The notes under the pieces were generated by a model. It was not told the DNA's origin. It did no database searches and saw only the letters and a program-made list of their open reading frames with translations. Both the position numbers and the translations under genes were made by a program. This document shows positions 9,367 to 20,345 of a DNA stretch of 64,000 bases, piece by piece. Origin of the DNA: Kiritimatiellia bacterium (lineage in GTDB: Bacteria > Verrucomicrobiota > Kiritimatiellia > RFP12 > UBA1067). The stretch is taken from assembly GCA_050949565.1 (NCBI GenBank), contig JBMNFY010000017.1, forward strand, positions 1,760,001 to 1,824,000, in the 5' to 3' direction. Within the stretch, counting starts at the first letter, position 1. Every line of letters starts with the position of its first letter.

Positions 9367-12300
9367 ATGAATACGAGACTGGCTGGATTGATGGCTATCT
9401 GTGTGGGTGCGCTGTCGCTTCACGCGCAAACATTGCGCACGGCGGGATCGCTTGCGGTGGACTTGGATGCCGCCACGATTACGGCGGCGGATGGCGACGC
9501 AGTGACTACATGGGCGAACAACGGCACGCTAGGCGCATCGTTTGACGCGCTCGCGGGCACGACCGGTGCGGCGTTCACCAACAACCTGCATGGCCGGAAA
9601 GCGATCCTCTTCGACGGCACCGCGCAGAGCGTGCTGGTCGGTCCGACGGCCCCCTCCTCCTTGACCGGCGGAAGTGTGTGGTCGATTGAGGCATGGGTGT
9701 GGGTTCCGTCGCTGCCGCCCGCGAAATCGGTCTACCTCTCGTGGACTGAGGACGAGACGGTGGGGACCGGCTGGCAGGGTTGGGTTAGGCTGATGATGCG
9801 CTACGATGTCCACGGTGTGCAGATTGATTTTCGCGGCGGTGCGCTGGGTTCGCTTTACGGCACGCCCGCGCCCGGTCACTGGCATCACATTGCCGTGACC
9901 CGGCCGCTCCTGCGATGATACATACCTTTTATGTGGATGGCGCATGCTGCGGCCGGCTCGGACAGAGTAGTGATATCAAGCTGCAGGCAGACAAGCCGCT
10001 GGCGCTTGGCGGCGTGCTGCGGGCCGGAACGATGGCCACCTACACGAACTTCTTTGCGGGCGCGCTCTCGCGGGTGCGCGTCCACACCGGCCCGCTGAGC
10101 GAGGACGACGTGCGCCACAACTACCTGGCCGATGTCCCGTCCTACCGCGCGGGCGAGCTACGCGGTCTGGAACGGCGGCGCCGGCGACTGGAACGATTCC
10201 TGCTTTCTGGCAGGACGGCCGGGTCGGCGCGGGCCTCGACGCGGTGCGCATCCAGAGGCGGCTCGCTGACCGTGACCAATGACGATGTGATCGGCCAGCA
10301 GTCTGGCGATGTTGGATCTGCGTACTGGAACGATCGAGTTGACCACCTCCGCCGCGCGTATCGACAGCCGCACGCCTTTCCTCGTGGGCCGCGAAAGCGG
10401 TCAGGCGGCCGCGATCAACGTGTCGAGCGGCGTGCTCCACGTTGTGTCGAGCGGCAATCCTGCGCATACCTCGACCTCGGCGTGAACGGCGCGCTGTCGA
10501 CGCTGGAAGTGGGCGGCTCGGGTACTGCGGCCACGCTCTACACCGCGCAGCTCCGCGCATTCGCGGAGGGCACCAGCGACATCCGCGTCATGAAAGGCGG
10601 CGTGATCGAAATGGACGCGCTGTTCGCGGACGCGCTGAGCGTCCCCTCGGTGAGCGTGGCGGGCGGCACCTTCCGCAACCGGACGGGCGGCACCATGGGG
10701 TACTTCTTCAATGTGCCGCAGGTGAACGTCTCCACGGACGGCGTGACCTTCGACACCCCCGCCGGAGCTGTCATGGCCGTTTCCGCGCCGCTGCTGCACG
10801 ATGCGTCCGGGCCTGATGCAGGCGGTGGCCTGCGCAAAATCGGGGGCGGGACGCTGGTCCTCAGCGGCACGAACACCTACGCCGGCGCGACCTCGGTCGA
10901 GGCTGGTACCTTGGTGCTTGCGCCCCGGCTGCTGGACGGACTGGTCTACCGGCTGGACACCTCCGCCGACGCGCTCGATACCCTCACGCTCGATGCCTCG
11001 TCCAACGTGCTCGCATGGGCCGATTGCAGCGGCGCGGGCTTTGTCTTCACGACCAACAAAACCACGATATGTCCGGTCTACGACCCCGCGCTCTTCGGCG
11101 GTCGCGGCGGCCTGCGTTTCAGTCGCGATGCCACCTGCTGCCGGCTGGCAACCGACCGGGCGGCCAAGATCCAGACGGTCTTCGCGGTGGTCGCGCCGGC
11201 GGCCGGCAACGACATCGGCGGCCTCTGGGGGCTCTCAGGGGACGATTACGGCATCCGCTTCAACGCGACCTCCGTGCAATACACCGGTAACAACAACGAC
11301 TTCTCCGCCTCTGGCGCGGTCTATACGAACGGAGCATTCGGCAACGGCTTCACCGTTGGTCAGCCGTTTGTACTGACCGCTGTCGCTGATCGCCCTCAGA
11401 CCTGGGTCACGGCGATCGGCGATTACTGGGGCAATCTTGAACACCGGCGCGCCTACCGCGGCGACATCGCCGAGATCCTGACGTACGACCGGCGACTGGA
11501 TGACCGCGAGCGCCAGGAGATCGCGCAGTATCTCATGGCGAAGTGGCTGGGCACGGTGTCGGCACCCGCGCTTTCCGATCAACTCCTGCCGCACGCCAAT
11601 GCGTTGACGGTCGGCGCGGGTGCGTCGGTGGATCTGCACGGATCCTCCGCGACGCTCTCCATGCTCCAAGGTGCCGGCGTGATCGGCAACGGGCAGCCCG
11701 CGACCTCGTTGCTGACGATCGGTGCGGATGATGCCGAATTCGCGTTCGCCGGTTCTATCACTGGTAACGTGGCCGTCAGCAAGATCGGCGCGGGGAACGC
11801 TGTCTTCGCCGGACAGAACACGCTCAGCGGTCCGCTCACGATCGAGGCCGGCACGCTCTCGCTCGCTCCGGCGTCTCGTCGGTCACGGGCTTGGTCTACC
11901 GGCTGGACGCCTCGGAACCTGAGACGCTGACCTTCCTCGCCGACGGCTCGAACGTGACCGCCTGGGCGGATGCCGAGGGCTCCGGCTTTGTGTTCGCGAC
12001 CACCAACGATCTCAACTGCCCGGTCTATGACGCCGCGCTCTTCGGCGGTCGTGGCGGACTCCACTTCGGTCGCGGCGGCGCGCGCGGACGCATGCTCGGT
12101 TCGGGCGTGACCAACGCCCAGACGGTTTTCGTGGTCAACATGATCCGCGACCAAAGCAATAGCGACAGCGGCCTATGGGGCTCGGAAGGGCAGGACAGCG
12201 GACTCCGCATCGGCAACACCACGTGGTACTGGCCCGGCAACAAAGACGATTTCCACTTCCGTGACAACGGCGGACTGGTTGCCGTCAACGGTATTGTCTC

Positions 12301-12976
12301 TAATGCCACGGTGACGGTCGGCCAGATCCATCTCGTCACCTCGGTCAACGGTGCGCGCCAAAGTTTCCGGCCCGCGATCGGCGATTATTGGGGTTCTTCT
12401 CAGTATACGTCCCGCTATTATCGCGGCGACGTGGCCGAGATCTTGGTGTTCGACCGTGTCCTCACCACGTTGGAACGCCAGACCGTCGAGGCTGCGTTAA
12501 TGGCTAAATGGTTCCCGACCGACAGCGGTAGCGTACTGCCGTCGAGCGCGGCGGTTACGGTGCGGGCGGGCGGAACGCTGGACTTGGCCGGCGGCGCGTT
12601 CACCGTAACTTCGCTGGCCGGCGGCGGTTGCGTCTCGAACGGCACACTGACGGTGACCGGAACCGTCGCACCGGATGGCGTGTTGAGTGTCACGGCTGCA
12701 GTGCAGTTTACCGGGACTTTGGAGCTGAATGTCAGGGCGGACGGCACTTGCGACAGTCTGGCGGTGGCAGGTGCGCTGGACCTCTCAGGTCTGACGCTGA
12801 CCCTGAACCTGCCGGCTGAGCCGCCGACCGTCGGGTCGTACACGCTGATCTCCGCTGCGGGCGGGATTCAGGGCACTTTCGAGCAGGCGTCGGTTCCCAA
12901 GCCTTGGGGCTTGATCATGGAACCGACCGCCGTACGTCTCACCTATGCGAGCGGAACGTTCATGTTACTGAAGTGA
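9367..12976 (+). CDS. Large secreted protein with a LamG/concanavalin-like domain, autotransporter-associated beta-strand repeats and two internal repeat domains; split by several frameshifts
   Basis: Signal peptide; WSIEAWV..WHHIAVT; GGLRKIGGGTLVLSGTNTYAGATSVEAGTL and SKIGAGNAVFAGQNTLSGPLTIEAGTL; repeated LVYRLD..CPVYD.ALFGGRGGL..IGDYWG..YRGD.AEIL; continuous across ORFs 9367..9918, 9915..11930 and 11891..12976. Confidence 0.75.
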
Positions 12977-13003: not shown

Positions 13004-14227
13004 ATGATGAGAGTGAACAGACGGCAATTTATGGAAGGGGCGGCGGCGTTCGGGCTGGCCGCAGGGATGGGCCGGGTGGCCGAAGGGGCAACGCCTACGG
13101 CATTCTCGGATTGGCGCGAGGGCCTGCTCGACATCCATCACATCAGCACGGGGCGGGGCGAATCGACGTTTGTCATCTGTCCAGACGGAACGACCATGCT
13201 GATTGATGCGGGCGACATGAGCGATGGACGCCCGGACGAGACGGTGCTGCCGCGCCTCCCGAACGCGAGCCGGACACCGGGCGAATGGATCGCCGCCTAT
13301 GTGGAACGTTTTTCCCGTCCGTTGAACCACAAAACGCCCCGTTTGGATTACGTGACATTGACTCACTTCCATTCGGACCATATCGGTTGTCGCCAGAACG
13401 AGGTCCGGGAGAAGAACGGTTATGCGCTTTCCGGCATCACGGAGGTCGCGGAGCATGTGGCCATCGGGACGCTCGTTGACCGCGCTTACCCTGATTACGC
13501 GTTTCCTACCCGCGAGGCGGTTGCGGCGAGCAATCCGAAATTCTTCAAGGACTATCTCGCGTTCGTCGAGCACCAGCGGACCAAGCGCGGAACGGTCATG
13601 GAGGCGTTCGACGTGGGCAGCCGCAAACAGTTCGCGTTGAAGCGCGCGCCGGACCGCTTCCCCAGCTTTATCGTGCGCAACATTGCCGCGAACGGCAAGG
13701 TGGGCGAGAAGACAGTTTTCACGCATGAGCAGCGTCCGGACGAGAACATGTGTTGTTCCGTGGTGACACTGTCCTACGGCGCGTTCACCTATTATACGGG
13801 CGGCGACTGCAGTGGTTCGCCTGCCAGACGCGATGTGGAGACACCCATAGGGGAAGCGGTCGGTCGCGTGAATGCCATGAGCTTGAACCATCACGGGTGT
13901 GATGACGGTACGAATGCCGCTATTCTTGCGGCGTTGCGTCCGCAAATCATGGTGATTCCGGTCTGGGACATGTGGCATCCGCAAACGAATGCCTTCACCC
14001 GGATGACAGACAAGACGATTTATCCCGACGACCGGATGATCTTTGCGACAGGGCTACACGAAAAGGCCAAGGCTCGTCTCGGTGAAGCGGCAGCGCTGAT
14101 CCGGCCTCAAGGGCATGTCGTCATCCGCGTGAGCGAAGGCGGCGCACGCTTCCGCGTGTTTGTGCTGGATCCGGGAGACTTTTCCGTGGTCGACGCTACA
14201 GACGAGTTGCACGCATCGAAGAAGTGA
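13004..14227 (+). CDS. Tat-exported metallo-beta-lactamase-fold hydrolase (ComEC/Rec2-like)
   Basis: NRRQFMEG twin-arginine signal; MLIDAG, THFHSDHIG (HxHxDH), TGGD and NHHG motifs. Confidence 0.8.
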   Translation: MMRVNRRQFMEGAAAFGLAAGMGRVAEGATPTAFSDWREGLLDIHHISTGRGESTFVICPDGTTMLIDAGDMSDGRPDETVLPRLPNASRTPGEWIAAYVERFSRPLNHKTPRLDYVTLTHFHSDHIGCRQNEVREKNGYALSGITEVAEHVAIGTLVDRAYPDYAFPTREAVAASNPKFFKDYLAFVEHQRTKRGTVMEAFDVGSRKQFALKRAPDRFPSFIVRNIAANGKVGEKTVFTHEQRPDENMCCSVVTLSYGAFTYYTGGDCSGSPARRDVETPIGEAVGRVNAMSLNHHGCDDGTNAAILAALRPQIMVIPVWDMWHPQTNAFTRMTDKTIYPDDRMIFATGLHEKAKARLGEAAALIRPQGHVVIRVSEGGARFRVFVLDPGDFSVVDATDELHASKK

Positions 14228-14254
14228 GTGGCGAGTAGAGGAGGGGGCCAGGAC

Positions 14255-16516
14255 ATGCGTTTGAAAAGAGCTTGGATGCGATGGATTGCCGCAATTCCCG
14301 TTGCGGTGTGCTGCCTTGACGCGCAAGGTCGGGGCGAGTCGTGGGTGCCCAAACCTCCGCCACCGCCGCCGGTTGAGACGTTGACGAACGCGGCGCGTTA
14401 TATCGAGTGGAAGTGGCGGATGGATGTCACCGACCCGCAGACGGGCGTGAACGCCAAGACGGCCACGGCATCTGTGCGTGAAATGGCGCAACGGCTGGAG
14501 CCGACGGAGCCTTGGTGCTGTGTCAAGGCCAAGCTGTACGCCTATCTGTGCGACAATCTGGCGATCGGTATGTCCGAGCATGATTGGTTCCCGGCCTTTG
14601 CGGTCTGGAACCGGTATGCGCGTCCGGTAAGTCCGGTCGTCGGACGGCGCAACCAGAAGATTTTCGCGCGCTACAATGCGGACGAGCAAGCCCGTATGAA
14701 TGCGGGTAACGCATCCGGCAAGTGGACGTTCTGGAAGGACTTCGACCATTCAGTGCCGGAATGGGAAAAGAATCTCGCCCTCGGCTTTCCCGGCATGGAC
14801 CGTCGCCTACGGGACAACTGGCGTGACGAACCGCGCTATCACGCGGTCTCGGAGGTCTCGCAGGCGACACTGCGGCTGATCGACCGCCTTATCGCCTACG
14901 GCGAGGCGCATGCGAACAAAGACGCTCTGCGGGTGCGGCGTCAAGTCGCGTCTCTGCGCCGCTTGCGCGCCGGTCCGCCGCAGACGGCACACGACGCGAT
15001 GATGTTCATCTACCTGTATTTCTTCTGCAGCGAACATCTCGACGTCATCCAGTGTCGCAGCCTGTCGATCATCGATGTCGTCCTGTGGCCCTACTATCAG
15101 GCCGACCTCGCGGCGGGCCGGACGACTGAGGCCGAGTTCCGCGAGCAGTTCAAGCATTTCCTCTGGCAGTGGGGGTCGATCGATAACTACTGGGGGCAGC
15201 CGGTCACGATGGGCGGCACGAAGGCCGACGGCACAACCGAGTACAATCCGCTCTCTTACATTATCCTTGATGTCATGGACGAATGTGCGCTGCCGACGCC
15301 AAAGTTTCACCTCAAGATCGCGGACAACACGCCGCGGGGGATCTTGCTGAAGGCGCTCGATATGGTGCGCCGTCACCGTCCGATCTCCTTCTGCGGCGAA
15401 GGGCCGATCCGACGCATCCTGACACACTACGGCTACACCGAGGACGAGGCTCGTCGCTTCTATACCAAGGGGTGCTACGAGTTCTGCCCCCCAGAAGGGG
15501 CGAACGGCACGGGGGTCGGTTACGTGAGCCTGGTGAAGCCAATTGAGGAACTGTTGGCGGCGGCAGCGCGTAACGAATTTTCGGCAGAGACCTATGAAGA
15601 TTTCGAAAAGGCCTACTTGCAGGCTGTTGTCGCCAACATGGTGGAGGCGACCGAAATCGCCAAGGCCTTTGAGTGCCATCTCGACGACGTGAATCCGGCG
15701 AACCTGACGACTTTAGCGGTCGAGAATGCCGTCAAGACGGGCAAGGACGCGTTTGCCAACGGTGCTTCGCGCGGCAACAACACGTCGATCCTGACGGTCG
15801 GGCTGGGAACGGCGGTCGATGCGTTGATGGCCGTACGGTCGATCGTTTACGAGCGCCGTGAAATGTCTTTGGTCAAACTGGGCGCGGTCATGCGTGACAA
15901 TTGGGCGGGTCATGAGGAACTCCGGCTGAGGATGCTGCGTTCGAAATGCAAGTGGGGGACGAACGATCCCCTCGCGAATGCGGCGGCGGGACGCATTTCC
16001 AAGGCACTCTCCCGGGCTGTGAATGGCAAGCCGAATTCCCGCGACGGACGGTTTTTCGTCAGCGGGCACTGCGCCCGTCAGTTCGTGCTGCAGGGCGAGC
16101 GTATAGGCGCAACGCCGGATGGCCGCAAGGCCGGGGAGGAGGTTTCCAAGAACCTCTCACCCACCATGGGGGCCGACACGGAGGGCGTCACGGCACTGGT
16201 TCTCTCCTTGGGTTCGCTTGATTCAATCGATTGGCCCGGCGATTTTCCGTTGGATGTGATGATGCTCCCCTACACCGTTTCCGGCGACGAGGGGTTGGAG
16301 GCGATGGCCGTCATTGTCCACGAGTTCTTTAACCGCGGCGGAGCCATGATTCAGTTCAATATCGTCGATGCGGAAGAGCTTTTGGACGCGCAGGCTCATC
16401 CAGAGAAATACGAGAACCTCCAGATTCGCGTATGCGGGTGGAACGTCCGCTGGAACGATTTGTCCAAGTCCGAGCAGGATGCCTATATCCTGCGTGCGCG
16501 TGCGCTGGCATTTTAA
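14255..16516 (+). CDS. Glycyl radical enzyme (PFL-like superfamily, not true PFL) with a signal-peptide-like N-terminus
   Basis: Cys loop KGCYEF (single Cys), GATPDGRKAGE, C-terminal glycyl loop LQIRVCGWNV; GAGGGGG SD before ATG 14255. Confidence 0.9.
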   Translation: MRLKRAWMRWIAAIPVAVCCLDAQGRGESWVPKPPPPPPVETLTNAARYIEWKWRMDVTDPQTGVNAKTATASVREMAQRLEPTEPWCCVKAKLYAYLCDNLAIGMSEHDWFPAFAVWNRYARPVSPVVGRRNQKIFARYNADEQARMNAGNASGKWTFWKDFDHSVPEWEKNLALGFPGMDRRLRDNWRDEPRYHAVSEVSQATLRLIDRLIAYGEAHANKDALRVRRQVASLRRLRAGPPQTAHDAMMFIYLYFFCSEHLDVIQCRSLSIIDVVLWPYYQADLAAGRTTEAEFREQFKHFLWQWGSIDNYWGQPVTMGGTKADGTTEYNPLSYIILDVMDECALPTPKFHLKIADNTPRGILLKALDMVRRHRPISFCGEGPIRRILTHYGYTEDEARRFYTKGCYEFCPPEGANGTGVGYVSLVKPIEELLAAAARNEFSAETYEDFEKAYLQAVVANMVEATEIAKAFECHLDDVNPANLTTLAVENAVKTGKDAFANGASRGNNTSILTVGLGTAVDALMAVRSIVYERREMSLVKLGAVMRDNWAGHEELRLRMLRSKCKWGTNDPLANAAAGRISKALSRAVNGKPNSRDGRFFVSGHCARQFVLQGERIGATPDGRKAGEEVSKNLSPTMGADTEGVTALVLSLGSLDSIDWPGDFPLDVMMLPYTVSGDEGLEAMAVIVHEFFNRGGAMIQFNIVDAEELLDAQAHPEKYENLQIRVCGWNVRWNDLSKSEQDAYILRARALAF

Positions 16517-16528
16517 AAGGGGGAAACA

Positions 16529-17371
16529 ATGAATAGACGTGCGTTTTGCATGGGAGCGGGAGTCGTCGCGGCGATGCCGTTCTATTCTTGGGCGAAGGTT
16601 GGCGGACGTCCGATGAAGGTACCGCTGATGCTGGATACGAAGCGGATGTCGATTCATGACGGACCGGGCATCCGCACGACGTTCTTCGTGAAGGGGTGCC
16701 CCTTGAAGTGTATCTGGTGCCATAATCCGGAATCGATCAGCACAAAGCCACAGTGGGCGCGTTTTCAGCATCTTTGCCGGAAATGCCCGAAGGGCTGCAC
16801 GATGGACGAGGCGACATGTCCGACCCGTGCGTTGAAGCACTATGGCACGGAGATGTCAATGGACGAGATAGTTGCCAAGGCACTCGAGGATAAGCCATTT
16901 TACGAGGCGTCGGGCGGAGGCGTGACGCTCTCGGGCGGCGAACCTCTTTTCTTCTGGGAGTGGACGGCCGAGCTTTTTAAACGCCTCAAGGCGGCGGGAC
17001 TCCACACCAGCCTCGACACTTCGCTCTATGCGCCGCCTGCTGCGATTGAGGCCATGCTGCCGGTCGTGGATATGTGGCTTCCCGATTACAAGGCAGACGA
17101 TGATGCGCTGCACCGGAAGTACACGGGCGTCCCGAACAAGCTCATCAAGGCAAATCTCGAAAGCCTCGTTGCGGCGAAGGCCAAGCTTGAGGTGCGCTGC
17201 CTCGTCGTGCCAGGCTGTACGGACGGCGAAGACATCCGATCGCGCCATCGGTACCTGAACTCGATTGGCATCACGGATAATCGCATCGTTGACCTTGAGT
17301 ACCATGATTACGCGCGCTCGAAATACCTCGCGCTTGGGCTTGAGGACACGATGCCCCCCATGTCCAAATGA
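16529..17371 (+). CDS. Glycyl-radical activating enzyme (radical SAM) with a twin-arginine N-terminus
   Basis: SIHDGPGIRTTFFVKGCPLKCIWCHNPES (CxxxCxxC), short Cys-rich insert CRKCPKGC..CP, GGVTLSGGEP; N-terminus MNRRAFCMGAGVVAAMPFYSWA. Confidence 0.92.
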   Translation: MNRRAFCMGAGVVAAMPFYSWAKVGGRPMKVPLMLDTKRMSIHDGPGIRTTFFVKGCPLKCIWCHNPESISTKPQWARFQHLCRKCPKGCTMDEATCPTRALKHYGTEMSMDEIVAKALEDKPFYEASGGGVTLSGGEPLFFWEWTAELFKRLKAAGLHTSLDTSLYAPPAAIEAMLPVVDMWLPDYKADDDALHRKYTGVPNKLIKANLESLVAAKAKLEVRCLVVPGCTDGEDIRSRHRYLNSIGITDNRIVDLEYHDYARSKYLALGLEDTMPPMSK

Positions 17372-17625: not shown

Positions 17626-18801
17626 ATGAAATACCGGAATAGGACACTGGAAGCGGAGGTATTGCGGGCGGTCGCGCACTTTCCCGCTGTGCTGGTGACG
17701 GGGCCTCGGCGCTCCGGAAAAACCACGCTGTTGCGCCATCTGTTCCCCTCTTGCCAGCACGTACTGCTGGAAGATCCGGATGTCGTGGCGCGGGTGCGGG
17801 CTGATCCGCGCTCGTTTCTGGACAGCCTCACGCTTCCTGTCATTCTCGACGAGATGCAGAACACGCCCGAGTTGTTCGCCTACGTGCGCACCCGCATCGA
17901 CCGGCAGCCGGATCGCAAAGGGCTGTGGCTGCTCACCGGCTCGCAGGAGGCTCAGCTGATGCAGGGTGTTACCGAGTCTATGGCGGGGCGCGCGGCGGTC
18001 TTCTCGCTGCTACCGTTCTCTGCCGAGGAAACGCCGGACATGACGTTACGGCTCGGCGGCTTCCCCGAAGTGCAGGCCGCGCCCGAAGTGGCGGACATCT
18101 GGTTCCGCTCGTACGTACAGACCTATCTTGAACGCGATGTACGCGCCGTCGCCTCGATCCGCGACCTCGCGACCTTCCGCCGTTTTATGGCGCTGCTGGC
18201 CAGCCGTTGCGGCCAGATGCTCAACAAGACGGCCCTGGCCGCGCCGCTGGGGGTGAGCGTGCCCACCCTCACCCAATGGCTGAGTATCCTGGAGGTCACC
18301 GGACAGATCATCCTGACGCCGCCCTATTACGAAAATTTCGGCAAGCGGATCGTCAAAACTCCCAAGGTCTATTTCGTGGACTCGGGTTTGGCGGCCGCAT
18401 TGCTGGGAATCCGAAATGACGAGGATCTGGCCGTTTCGCCCTTCCGCGGCCCGCTGTTCGAGGGACTGGTCGCCTCGGAGATCGTCAAGCACCGTTTGAA
18501 CCGGGGACAGGAACGGGGACTGTACATTTTCCGCGACCGCCAAGGGCTGGAGGTCGATTTCGTGGTGGACGAGGGCAACCGCCGCCTGCTGCTGGTCGAA
18601 GCCAAGGCTACCCGCACGCCGATGCCCGACGATGGACGTTCCCTGACGCGTCTGGCAACGGCGATGGGGAACAGCGCCATGACGCGCGCGGTGGTCGTGC
18701 ATGCCGGCACGGCGGATCGTGCCGCGCCCATGCCGCTGTGCCCCGGTGTGCGGGCGGTCGGCTGGCGCGCGTTGCATGCGTTGCTTGATGAGAAAGTCTG
18801 A
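17626..18801 (+). CDS. AAA_14-type ATPase with C-terminal DUF4143-like domain
   Basis: GPRRSGKTT Walker A, ILDEMQ Walker B, LLTGS, GGFPE, KTPKVYFVDSG, EVDFVV..LVEAK nuclease-like motif. Confidence 0.85.
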   Translation: MKYRNRTLEAEVLRAVAHFPAVLVTGPRRSGKTTLLRHLFPSCQHVLLEDPDVVARVRADPRSFLDSLTLPVILDEMQNTPELFAYVRTRIDRQPDRKGLWLLTGSQEAQLMQGVTESMAGRAAVFSLLPFSAEETPDMTLRLGGFPEVQAAPEVADIWFRSYVQTYLERDVRAVASIRDLATFRRFMALLASRCGQMLNKTALAAPLGVSVPTLTQWLSILEVTGQIILTPPYYENFGKRIVKTPKVYFVDSGLAAALLGIRNDEDLAVSPFRGPLFEGLVASEIVKHRLNRGQERGLYIFRDRQGLEVDFVVDEGNRRLLLVEAKATRTPMPDDGRSLTRLATAMGNSAMTRAVVVHAGTADRAAPMPLCPGVRAVGWRALHALLDEKV

Positions 18802-19928: not shown

Positions 19929-20345
19929 CGGGAGCGCGGGCGTCCCCGCCCGCAGAAAGTTGAAAGATTTTAACGCAGAGACGCAGAGGCGCAGAGATTT
20001 TTACGGGATGGCGTCGTGACCGCCGCCGAGGGGGGAGGGACGAGCGTCTGCTCGTCCACGGGCAAGCAGACGCTTGCCCCTCCCTGTGCTCCGCGATAGA
20101 ACCTGAAACCATCCTTCCGCACAGCGGAAGGCGGCTCGTGGGGACACTCGCCCTCCATTGCTTGCTCCGGCGGCTCGTGGGGACACTCGCCCTCCATTGC
20201 TTGCTCCGGCGGCTCGTGGGGACACTCGCCCTCCATTGCTTGCTCCGGCGGCTCGTGGGGACACTCGCCCTCCATTGCTTGCTCCGGCGGCTCGTGGGGA
20301 CACTCGCCCTCCAAATCATGTCAATCATGTCAATCATGTCAAAAA
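19929..20345. repeat. Intergenic mosaic of REP-like modules
   Basis: GGGAGCGCGGGCGTCCCCGCCCGC, GCAGAGACGCAGAGGCGCAGAG, GGAGGGACGAGCGTCTGCTCGTCC (also at ~50933), (ATCATGTCA)x3 (related reverse complement at ~3078). Confidence 0.8.
20130..20313. repeat. 39-bp perfect tandem repeat, 4.7 copies
   Basis: GGCGGCTCGTGGGGACACTCGCCCTCCATTGCTTGCTCC at 20130, 20169, 20208, 20247 and partial at 20286; core also single at ~37490. Confidence 0.95.

Follow-up and report, generated by a model that had tools for sequence, protein, structure and literature searches.

Conserved export-type leaders on a glycyl radical enzyme and its activase point to a candidate periplasmic radical system in Kiritimatiellia

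Introduction

Among the closest known counterparts of the system described here are the glycyl radical enzymes (GREs) of the 1,2-eliminase/isomerase class, for which a Cys-x-Glu (CXE) motif has been defined (PMC13450708, a June 2026 review). In PflD/YbiW, which cleave the ring C–O bond of 1,5-anhydrohexitol 6-phosphates, hydrogen is abstracted at C2, beside a hydroxyl group, the CXE Glu deprotonates the C2-OH and heterolytic C–O cleavage follows (PMC13450708). Here we describe, in a 64,000-nucleotide stretch of a Kiritimatiellia bacterium genome (contig JBMNFY010000017.1; this whole stretch is referred to as the window), a GRE gene and an adjoining gene for its radical S-adenosylmethionine (SAM) activase, the products of which both begin with what appear to be export signals. 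We consider it likely, judging from the pair and its relatives, that this two-gene system has moved out of the cytoplasm and would act in the periplasm, cleaving sugar C–O bonds.

To our knowledge, all GREs and all radical SAM activases characterised so far operate in the cytoplasm or in a microcompartment, where SAM and low-potential reductants are to be had. We found no published account of an exported GRE or activase in the full-text literature, subscription journals and supplementary files being outside the scope of that search. In PMC13450708, the terms ‘periplasm’, ‘signal peptide’, ‘secret-’, ‘export’ and ‘extracellular’ have 0 occurrences and the passage on compartments concerns microcompartments; this agrees with an earlier sequence-only reading of the window, which had stated that known GREs are cytoplasmic or microcompartment-bound.

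The glycine loop and the CXE cysteine loop of the window GRE are common to HypD (6vxc), the B12-independent glycerol and 1,2-propanediol dehydratases (1r8w and 5i2g) and CutC, at a template modelling (TM) score of ~0.8, but these enzymes are cytoplasmic or enclosed in microcompartments (PMC13450708, ‘GRE Cellular Compartments’). PflD/YbiW (PDB 8ID0/8YJO and 8ID7), acting on 1,5-anhydromannitol-6-phosphate and 1,5-anhydroglucitol-6-phosphate, have the same Cys-x-Glu loop as the window GRE (TM 0.82–0.83 to 8id0/8yjo) but are 21–22% identical to it, leaderless and specific for phosphorylated, that is cytoplasmic, substrates, whereas the window GRE has a putative signal peptide, a proline linker and the company of exported glycan enzymes. 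The window activase shares CX3CX2C and GGEP motifs with the TIGR02494 activases (PflC/CutD/HypD-activase type) and scores above the cut-off of that family, but differs from them in a 28-residue leader of the twin-arginine translocation (Tat) type and in a short insert with four conserved ligands in place of eight Cys.

Two kinds of exported chemistry are also comparable. The Gfo/Idh/MocA-like enzymes of this genome and phylum are cofactor-loaded and folded inside the cell and have a twin-arginine leader, as is proposed here for the activase (glucose-fructose oxidoreductase of Zymomonas is the textbook Tat-exported cofactor enzyme), but their tightly bound redox cofactor is regenerated in each cycle, whereas every activation by a radical SAM activase uses up SAM and one electron. 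The periplasmic 3-keto-glycoside route, also non-hydrolytic, weakens a sugar C–O bond from the neighbouring carbon through oxidation that depends on NAD or FAD, together with a hydratase or lyase; it uses no protein radical, and a domain of the 3-keto-disaccharide-hydrolase family is fused to GREs of the clade described below.

Results

Conserved leaders on both proteins

Both open reading frames (ORFs) and both N-termini are present as the sequence-only reading had described them, with a good ribosome-binding site ahead of each (Table 1). The gap between the GRE stop codon and the activase start is 13 nt, and the GRE is thus adjoined by a dedicated radical SAM activase. For each protein we collected the 120 best matches from a 5.8-billion-protein collection; identity to the window proteins was 57–80% for the GRE and 72–84% for the activase.

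The GRE leader was assessed with a four-point rule of our own (leader of at least 15 aa, 10-residue Kyte–Doolittle mean of at least 2.0, at least one K/R before the core, and small residues at −3 and −1), which 115 of the 120 GRE homologues passed, in keeping with the earlier suggestion that this N-terminus, followed by a PKPPPPPP linker, resembles a signal peptide. Five did not pass: P0169 on hydrophobicity (1.86), P0170, which is called from MPKP, P0199, which is a fusion, and P0211 and P0223, which lack K/R. Small residues were found at −3 (A 91, V 19, S 6, G 1, T 1) and −1 (G 96, A 21, S 1) in 118/120 homologues, and a block [R/K]-G-[E/Q]-x-[W/F] after the leader is likewise conserved in 118/120. 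These leaders are of the type used by the general secretory (Sec) pathway. Homologues of the GRE keep the extension while varying its sequence, with a mean pairwise identity of 0.27 in the leader versus 0.70 in the conserved mature start. A lipoprotein reading of the AVCC in the GRE leader was ruled out, since −1 is Val and homologues do not keep the Cys.

The activase of the window begins MNRRAFCMGAGVVAAMPFYSWA-KVGGRP-MKVPLMLDTKRMSIHDGPGIRT, followed by CPLKCIWC, with MNRRAFCMGAGVVAAMPFYSWAKVGGRP ahead of MKVPLMLDTKRMSIHDGPGIRT. Its N-R-R-A-F motif, the hydrophobic region CMGAGVVAAMPFYSWA and an A-x-A-like c-region ending S-W-A are those expected of a Tat leader, and the twin-arginine motif with a hydrophobic stretch that the sequence-only reading had noted behind a Shine–Dalgarno sequence has counterparts in most homologues: RR (37) or RK (75), with a hydrophobic residue two positions on, was found in 112/120 homologues, with a median leader of 28 aa. 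The exceptions are five entries starting at or near MKTPL, P0073 (R-Q), P0080 (a non-hydrophobic extension) and P0117 (TRKEF, missed by the anchor rule). Mean pairwise identity was 0.42 in the activase leader versus 0.91 in the sequence that follows. A variable leader ahead of a conserved mature start, seen in both proteins, is at the sequence level the signature of targeting peptides and not of untranslated DNA.

An organism-specific Tat profile was built from 42 strict Tat leaders of the same genome, the activase excluded, against a background of 3,940 ORF N-termini. On this profile 113/120 activase N-termini scored above the 95th percentile and 50 above the 98th, the window activase leader reaching 13.8 (97.8th percentile); RK leaders scored below RR leaders (13.5 versus 19.3). 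The genome encodes TatC and two TatA proteins, and a crude scan found dozens of canonical SRRxFLK-type leaders. On the likeness of the activase leaders to Tat leaders these results, taken with those given in the Discussion, are mixed.

The sequence-only reading had raised MKVPLML as an alternative activase start. Leaderless relatives do begin at that point (MKTPLLLD), but the long form is not mis-called: because those relatives start at MKTPLLLD, the activase leader appears to be a discrete add-on module.

Distribution of the leaders

Three other GRE/activase pairs in the same genome, one of them PflB/PflA-like, are all without leaders, and the three other activases begin 10–20 residues ahead of the HDGPG-type motif with no hydrophobic leader. 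By the same hydrophobicity rule, a leader was found in 0/65 unfused database representatives at ≤42% identity. At E ≤ 1e-100, the GRE occurred in 16/401 sampled genomes of the class and 10/162 genera.

A FastTree phylogeny of 78 core sequences was computed with the leaders cut off and rooted at the midpoint, 42 distant leaderless representatives having been thinned beforehand and four leader-state labels set by hand after the N-termini had been read. One clade of 49 rows, on a long stem, contained 46 leader-bearing sequences (Sec 34, signal peptide plus fused domain 8, Tat 4) and 3 leaderless ones; outside it 28/29 rows were leaderless, the exception, P0325, being a separate fusion. Within the clade, GREs with a Tat leader were MTPKIDRRTFLGGAAALG in L007, YTRRGFLGLASG in L040 (L018) and SRRTFLRLAAL in L019, together with P0242 and P0249. 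Sec and Tat leaders thus interchange on the GRE among close relatives. A second GRE family, 28% identical and standing beside the first in locus L003, was leader-bearing in 109/120 of its closest homologues (by a crude rule, 55 Sec-like and 54 Tat-like).

The leader of the second-family GRE in L003 (12193-14607) closely matches that of the activase in L036 (L009), from a sister genome (MKKG..EVTRKSFIAGAAS..), with hardly a difference between them; from these sequences it looks as if leaders have been swapped between activase and GRE.

Within genomes, the leader state of the GRE and that of the activase agreed in 15/16. Both proteins have a leader in 8 genomes (G000, G391, G325, G095, G387, the L005 genome, G335 and G085). 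Neither has one in 3 genomes of 2 genera inside the exported clade (G049, G305 and G398), whose activases start MKTPLLLD and are 65–67% identical to the window activase, nor in 4 genomes outside the clade (G129, G222, G265 and G165). In one further genome, G246, no activase was found.

Catalytic residues, family and predicted structure

By domain content the GRE has a PFL-like region at residues 133–601 and a Gly_radical domain at 631–734 (PF01228, E 2.6e-20), and the activase has Radical_SAM and Fer4_12 domains. Among homologues covering the positions, Cys407 was conserved in 119/119, Glu409 in 118/119 and Gly728 in 118/118, and R725, G728 and W729 were invariant in 60 diverse sequences. The activase residues C57, C61 and C64 were each present in 120/120, with an invariant SAM-binding GGEP (G136, G137, E138, P139). 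Its ferredoxin-like insert is short, with conserved C83, C/H86, C90 and C97, and C224 and C230 are conserved too; non-PflA-type activases have an insert with eight Cys for two auxiliary [4Fe-4S] clusters.

The activase scored above the curated NCBIfam cut-off of TIGR02494 (240.5 bits, cut-off 174.35). The GRE fell under those of TIGR01774, the PFL2/glycerol dehydratase subfamily (221.9 versus 678.2), HypD (214.2 versus 1100) and CutC (146.4 versus 1050), and by curated cut-off belongs neither to any named equivalog (HypD, CutC, HpsG/HpfG) nor to TIGR01774. As its scores lie far under those of every named GRE family, it is to be regarded as a real but divergent GRE; its sequence indicates that it is a divergent member of the Cys-x-Glu (eliminase/isomerase) GREs.

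An AlphaFold2 model of the GRE, built on 60 sequences, had a mean predicted local distance difference test score (pLDDT) of 95 and a predicted TM score of 0.92. In the model, residues 1–21 form a lone helix (pLDDT 58–69), residues 20–25 fall below 50, residues 22–39 are coil and a confident core begins at ~40. Foldseek with the whole chain returned 5i2g, 6vxc, 8id0 and 1r8w at TM ~0.8 and 20–22% identity. Model and matches agree with the ten-stranded barrel, enclosing the Cys loop, that typifies the GRE superfamily. The GCYE of the GRE aligned with the GCvE of PflD (8id0) and HypD, and the best solved relative by sequence was PflD 8id0 (184 bits).

Fusions, gene neighbourhood and habitat

Fusions were read among the closest representatives of 50%-identity clusters. 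Long GRE proteins were built of a signal peptide, a carbohydrate-active domain and then the GRE (six of them, and one with an unassigned front part, are given in Table 1). In L039 such a fusion was confirmed as a 956-aa ORF without stops on a 328-kb contig, consisting of a signal peptide, 3keto-disac_hyd, PFL-like and Gly_radical.

Elsewhere, leader-bearing GREs adjoin exported glycan enzymes, among them a protein matching MGH1-like, glycoside hydrolase family (GH) 65 C-terminal and GH130 models. Their further neighbours include GH88 with DUF4861, GH20-like, GH5+SASA, SASA and GDSL esterases, as well as FAD oxidoreductases with leaders. A neighbour with a Tat leader was placed near GH5/apiosidase-like families by a language-model search (0.93, a lead only). 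In three loci, an AraC/PAS regulator and then a secreted protein of ~620 aa without a Pfam family lie upstream of the exported GRE; an atlas search gave a weak LamG-like lead for this protein (0.89). The metallo-beta-lactamase-fold neighbour in the window was ruled out as a conserved partner, since no locus other than the near-identical L002 has it next to the GRE.

Two other kinds of neighbour were seen. An AAA_14/DUF4143 ATPase gene (window 17626-18801) adjoins the GRE pair, and a 23%-identical ATPase stands beside the pair in a ruminant-gut genome (L005 1931-3133). Polyketide/fatty-acid-synthase-like genes with ketosynthase-like N-termini were found beside the GRE–activase pair in L039 (13142-17976) and L043 (1-4666); their presence next to both exported and leaderless versions of the pair could be conserved synteny or a functional link.

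Carriers of the family, which is large and has short genes, come from anaerobic digesters, landfills and animal guts. The stretch itself was present in 14 DNA runs from biogas, sludge, landfill and anaerobic-digester metagenomes, some of which may be the source of the assembly, and in 6 RNA-library runs from 6 studies. Contigs from four RNA libraries take in the coding regions of both leaders. They run across the GRE start (for example, 14051-16158) and across the boundary between GRE and activase with the activase leader (for example, 16121-17167 and 16455-17073), and one spans the 13004-14227 neighbour and the GRE.

Table 1 Positions of the GRE–activase pair and related features (window coordinates unless a locus is named)
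Feature	Position	Strand	Details
GRE gene	14255-16516	+	ATG 14255, 753 aa, stop TAA 16514-16516
GRE ribosome-binding site GGAGGGGG	14240-14247	+	7 nt upstream of ATG 14255, read directly
Predicted GRE leader, residues 1-25, MRLKRAWMRWIAAIPVAVCCLDAQG	14255-14329	+	Sec-type: basic n-region, 12-residue hydrophobic core, A at -3, G at -1
Predicted GRE mature start and proline linker RGESWVPKPPPPPPV, residues 26-40	14330-14374	+	Conserved; coil in model
Cys407-Tyr408-Glu409 (tgc tac gag)	15473-15481	+	Predicted thiyl-radical Cys and general-base Glu of the Cys loop
RVCGW glycyl radical loop	16427-16441	+	Gly728 codon 16436-16438
Activase ribosome-binding site AAGGGGGA	16517-16524	+	4 nt ahead of activase start
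Activase gene, GRE-activating radical SAM enzyme	16529-17371	+	ATG 16529, 280 aa
Predicted activase leader, residues 1-28	16529-16612	+	N-R-R-A-F, hydrophobic CMGAGVVAAMPFYSWA, KVGGRP; twin-arginine type
Activase CX3CX2C (Cys57, Cys61, Cys64)	16697-16720	+	SAM-binding [4Fe-4S] cluster
Upstream neighbour, metallo-beta-lactamase-fold protein	13004-14227	+	Own Tat leader MMRVNRRQFMEGAAAFGLAAG; weak Lactamase_B; TAT_signal E 0.0038
Fusion P0241			SASA sialate-type acetylesterase in front of GRE
Fusion P0243			3-keto-disaccharide-hydrolase family in front of GRE
Fusions P0245, P0246			AXE1 acetyl esterase in front of GRE
Fusion P0248			GH2 mannosidase-like in front of GRE
Fusion P0325			GH78 rhamnosidase in front of GRE
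Fusion P0244			826-residue part without assigned family in front of GRE
Secreted protein without Pfam family, 606-631 aa (606, 628, 631)	L036 6730-8625; L041 4212-6098; L042 4025-5845

Discussion

The sequence-only reading had proposed radical chemistry outside the cytoplasm or at the membrane. Of the findings it had named as refuting this, homologues devoid of the extensions and a start at an internal Met, neither was borne out by the sequence checks. Conserved leaders on both partners, matched leader states within genomes, interchange of Sec and Tat leaders and fusion to secreted enzymes all support that proposal. Since closely related GREs bear now a Sec and now a Tat leader, and proteins leave through Sec unfolded, the glycyl radical would have to be installed after export; this in turn would explain why an Fe–S activase, only one of the genome's four GRE activases, bears a Tat-type leader. 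The basic n-region followed by a hydrophobic stretch also means that the catalytic domains are predicted to face outward even if the leaders are uncleaved.

Several observations weigh against such a relocated system. The predicted GRE cleavage site is followed by Arg at +1, which is unusual among Sec substrates, and the GRE leader may, judged by that residue, be an uncleaved anchor. Two thirds of the activase leaders have R-K instead of R-R. The Pfam model TAT_signal (PF10518), at E ≤ 1, matched 4/120 activase homologues (best E 0.0013) and did not match the window activase; this model is short and gives the textbook leader of the 13004 neighbour only 17.6 bits. On the own-genome profile only 1/120 activase N-termini exceeded the 99th percentile, and the family median was 15.8 versus 26.9 for the training leaders scored by leave-one-out, so that the activase leaders look like Tat leaders of below-average strength. 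The phylogeny is a FastTree tree with a midpoint root, and independent contrasts on that tree, all in the same direction (3/3; sign test p 0.25), comprise few events. One genome breaks the match of leader states: in G228 (~94% complete) a GRE with a Sec leader is accompanied by a sole detected activase, 76% identical to that of the window, which is leaderless and starts MNRPLKTPLLLD behind a ribosome-binding site of its own (L056 = G228:C16, L037 = G228:C8). The matching of leader states is thus suggestive at the level of sequence and statistically not established. The RNA-library contigs are assembled and carry no transcript ends, strand or level, and DNA carry-over is possible. No supply of SAM or of low-potential electrons beyond the cytoplasm is known to us, and a search for a periplasmic electron donor by Fe–S and haem motifs among the Tat-leader proteins of the genome found only an unlinked tri-haem cytochrome and a polyferredoxin, none of them linked to the locus.

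As a separate observation, the G228 activase start (MNR-PLKTPLL) reads like a precise leader loss.

In one rival reading, both proteins are exported with the radical already installed: the GRE would be activated and folded in the cytoplasm and would leave with its activase by Tat, together or in turn, the activase leader then serving co-export or quality control. It is established that SAM and reduced flavodoxin/ferredoxin are available only in the cytoplasm and Tat moves folded proteins; some GREs of the family do carry a Tat leader, and 54/120 leaders are Tat-like in the second exported GRE family. The window GRE and 34/49 clade rows, however, have short Sec-type leaders (median 20 aa) without a twin arginine, and Sec needs an unfolded chain, with which a pre-installed, buried radical is hard to square; the interchange of the two leader types demands a system independent of route. 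We therefore regard pre-export activation as distinctly improbable. Little credence is likewise given to the idea that the leaders do not export at all but hold both proteins at the membrane, on its cytoplasmic side, or at an internal compartment, or bind a chaperone, the chemistry remaining cytoplasmic. This avoids the cofactor problem, and fits the rejection of most activase leaders by the Pfam Tat model, the prevalence of R-K and the Arg after the GRE hydrophobic stretch. Against it, the established positive-inside rule predicts an N-in, C-out topology with the catalytic domain outside even for an uncleaved leader, and the proteins fused or adjacent to these GREs are glycan enzymes of a typical secreted kind, with signal peptides of their own. 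Targeting to a microcompartment in particular was ruled out, as the genome, 92% complete, yielded no gene for a bacterial microcompartment shell protein (PF00936); tags that direct proteins into microcompartments are amphipathic helices and not RR plus a hydrophobic stretch.

A vestigial exported GRE, or one with some non-radical function (sugar binding, for instance), the activase leader then being a neutral accident of lineage, would account for the G228 pairing of a leader-bearing GRE with a leaderless activase and for the lack of any known periplasmic cofactor source. Near-invariance of the radical Gly, Cys-x-Glu, CX3CX2C and GGEP across 119–120 homologues argues the other way, as do the occurrence of the pair in 10/162 sampled genera and its coverage by RNA-library contigs, and we hold this explanation to be very improbable. 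Mis-called start codons, with translation from internal codons such as Met29 of the activase, are close to refuted: five of the 120 activase entries begin at or near MKTPL, exactly where the truly leaderless relatives start, but the long forms have strong ribosome-binding sites ahead of them, each extension is kept at the protein level in over 110 homologues, and leader presence matches between the two genes within genomes.

We thus favour a periplasmic, sugar C–O-cleaving GRE system, for which the following course may be proposed. The GRE would be translocated by Sec; in sister lineages it would use Tat or travel at the C-terminal end of a secreted glycosidase or carbohydrate esterase. The activase would fold with its Fe–S clusters in the cytoplasm and then cross by Tat. 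Once in the periplasm, or anchored on the outside of the inner membrane by uncleaved leaders, the activase would install the radical on Gly728; Cys407 would take hydrogen from a sugar carbinol carbon, Glu409 would deprotonate the hydroxyl, and the neighbouring C–O bond would then be cleaved, as happens in the 1,2-eliminases and in PflD/YbiW, which are sugar C–O lyases. C–O cleavage beside a free sugar hydroxyl is suggested by the CXE loop, by the closest relatives of known function and by the fusions to esterases and glycosidases. The substrate is probably a mono- or oligosaccharide unit that is laid bare by esterases and glycosidases fused to family members or encoded beside them; the fused or adjacent esterases may unmask the hydroxyl beside the cleaved C–O. 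Our preferred guess, by analogy with other Tat-exported cofactor enzymes, is an activase that takes SAM and an electron, in a reduced cluster, with it across the membrane and works once or a few times; a periplasmic supply of SAM and electrons would be the alternative.

If a clade with export signals on both partners does exist as read here, SAM and electrons must reach the periplasm by an unknown route or a pre-loaded activase must be used stoichiometrically, and either answer would be new biochemistry. Current accounts of anaerobic glycan breakdown rely almost entirely on hydrolases, lyases and sulfatases. The fusions to esterases and glycosidases suggest that it also includes a radical step; periplasmic radical cleavage would, if true, be an oxygen-free counterpart of the oxidative glycan-cleaving enzymes of aerobes. 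The broadest form of this proposal, that anaerobic glycan degraders use periplasmic protein-radical chemistry as a non-hydrolytic means of sugar C–O cleavage, by way of a Tat-crossing, one-shot activase pre-loaded with SAM and an electron, is tentative and on present evidence rather doubtful. Such cleavage could be aimed at an oxygen of the ring or of the glycosidic bond, or at a substituent beside a hydroxyl freshly unmasked by fused or adjacent esterases.

Additional features of the window

Upstream of the locus, window positions 9915-12976 hold two large adjacent ORFs of 671 and 361 aa, the second of which has no Pfam match. The end of the 671-aa ORF and the start of the 361-aa ORF have a segment of ~60 residues in common (..VYRLD.S....LT..AD.SNV.AWAD..G.GFVF..), as might result from duplication of a domain or from the splitting of one gene.

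At window 20130-20342, in the interval that separates mutS from an LPG_synthase_TM gene, 4.7 perfect tandem copies of a 39-bp unit come before 3.2 copies of a 9-bp unit. Translation of contig C1 of the genome shows a closely similar repeat (..RRLVGTLALHC..), and the 39-bp repeat may belong to a dispersed repeat family.

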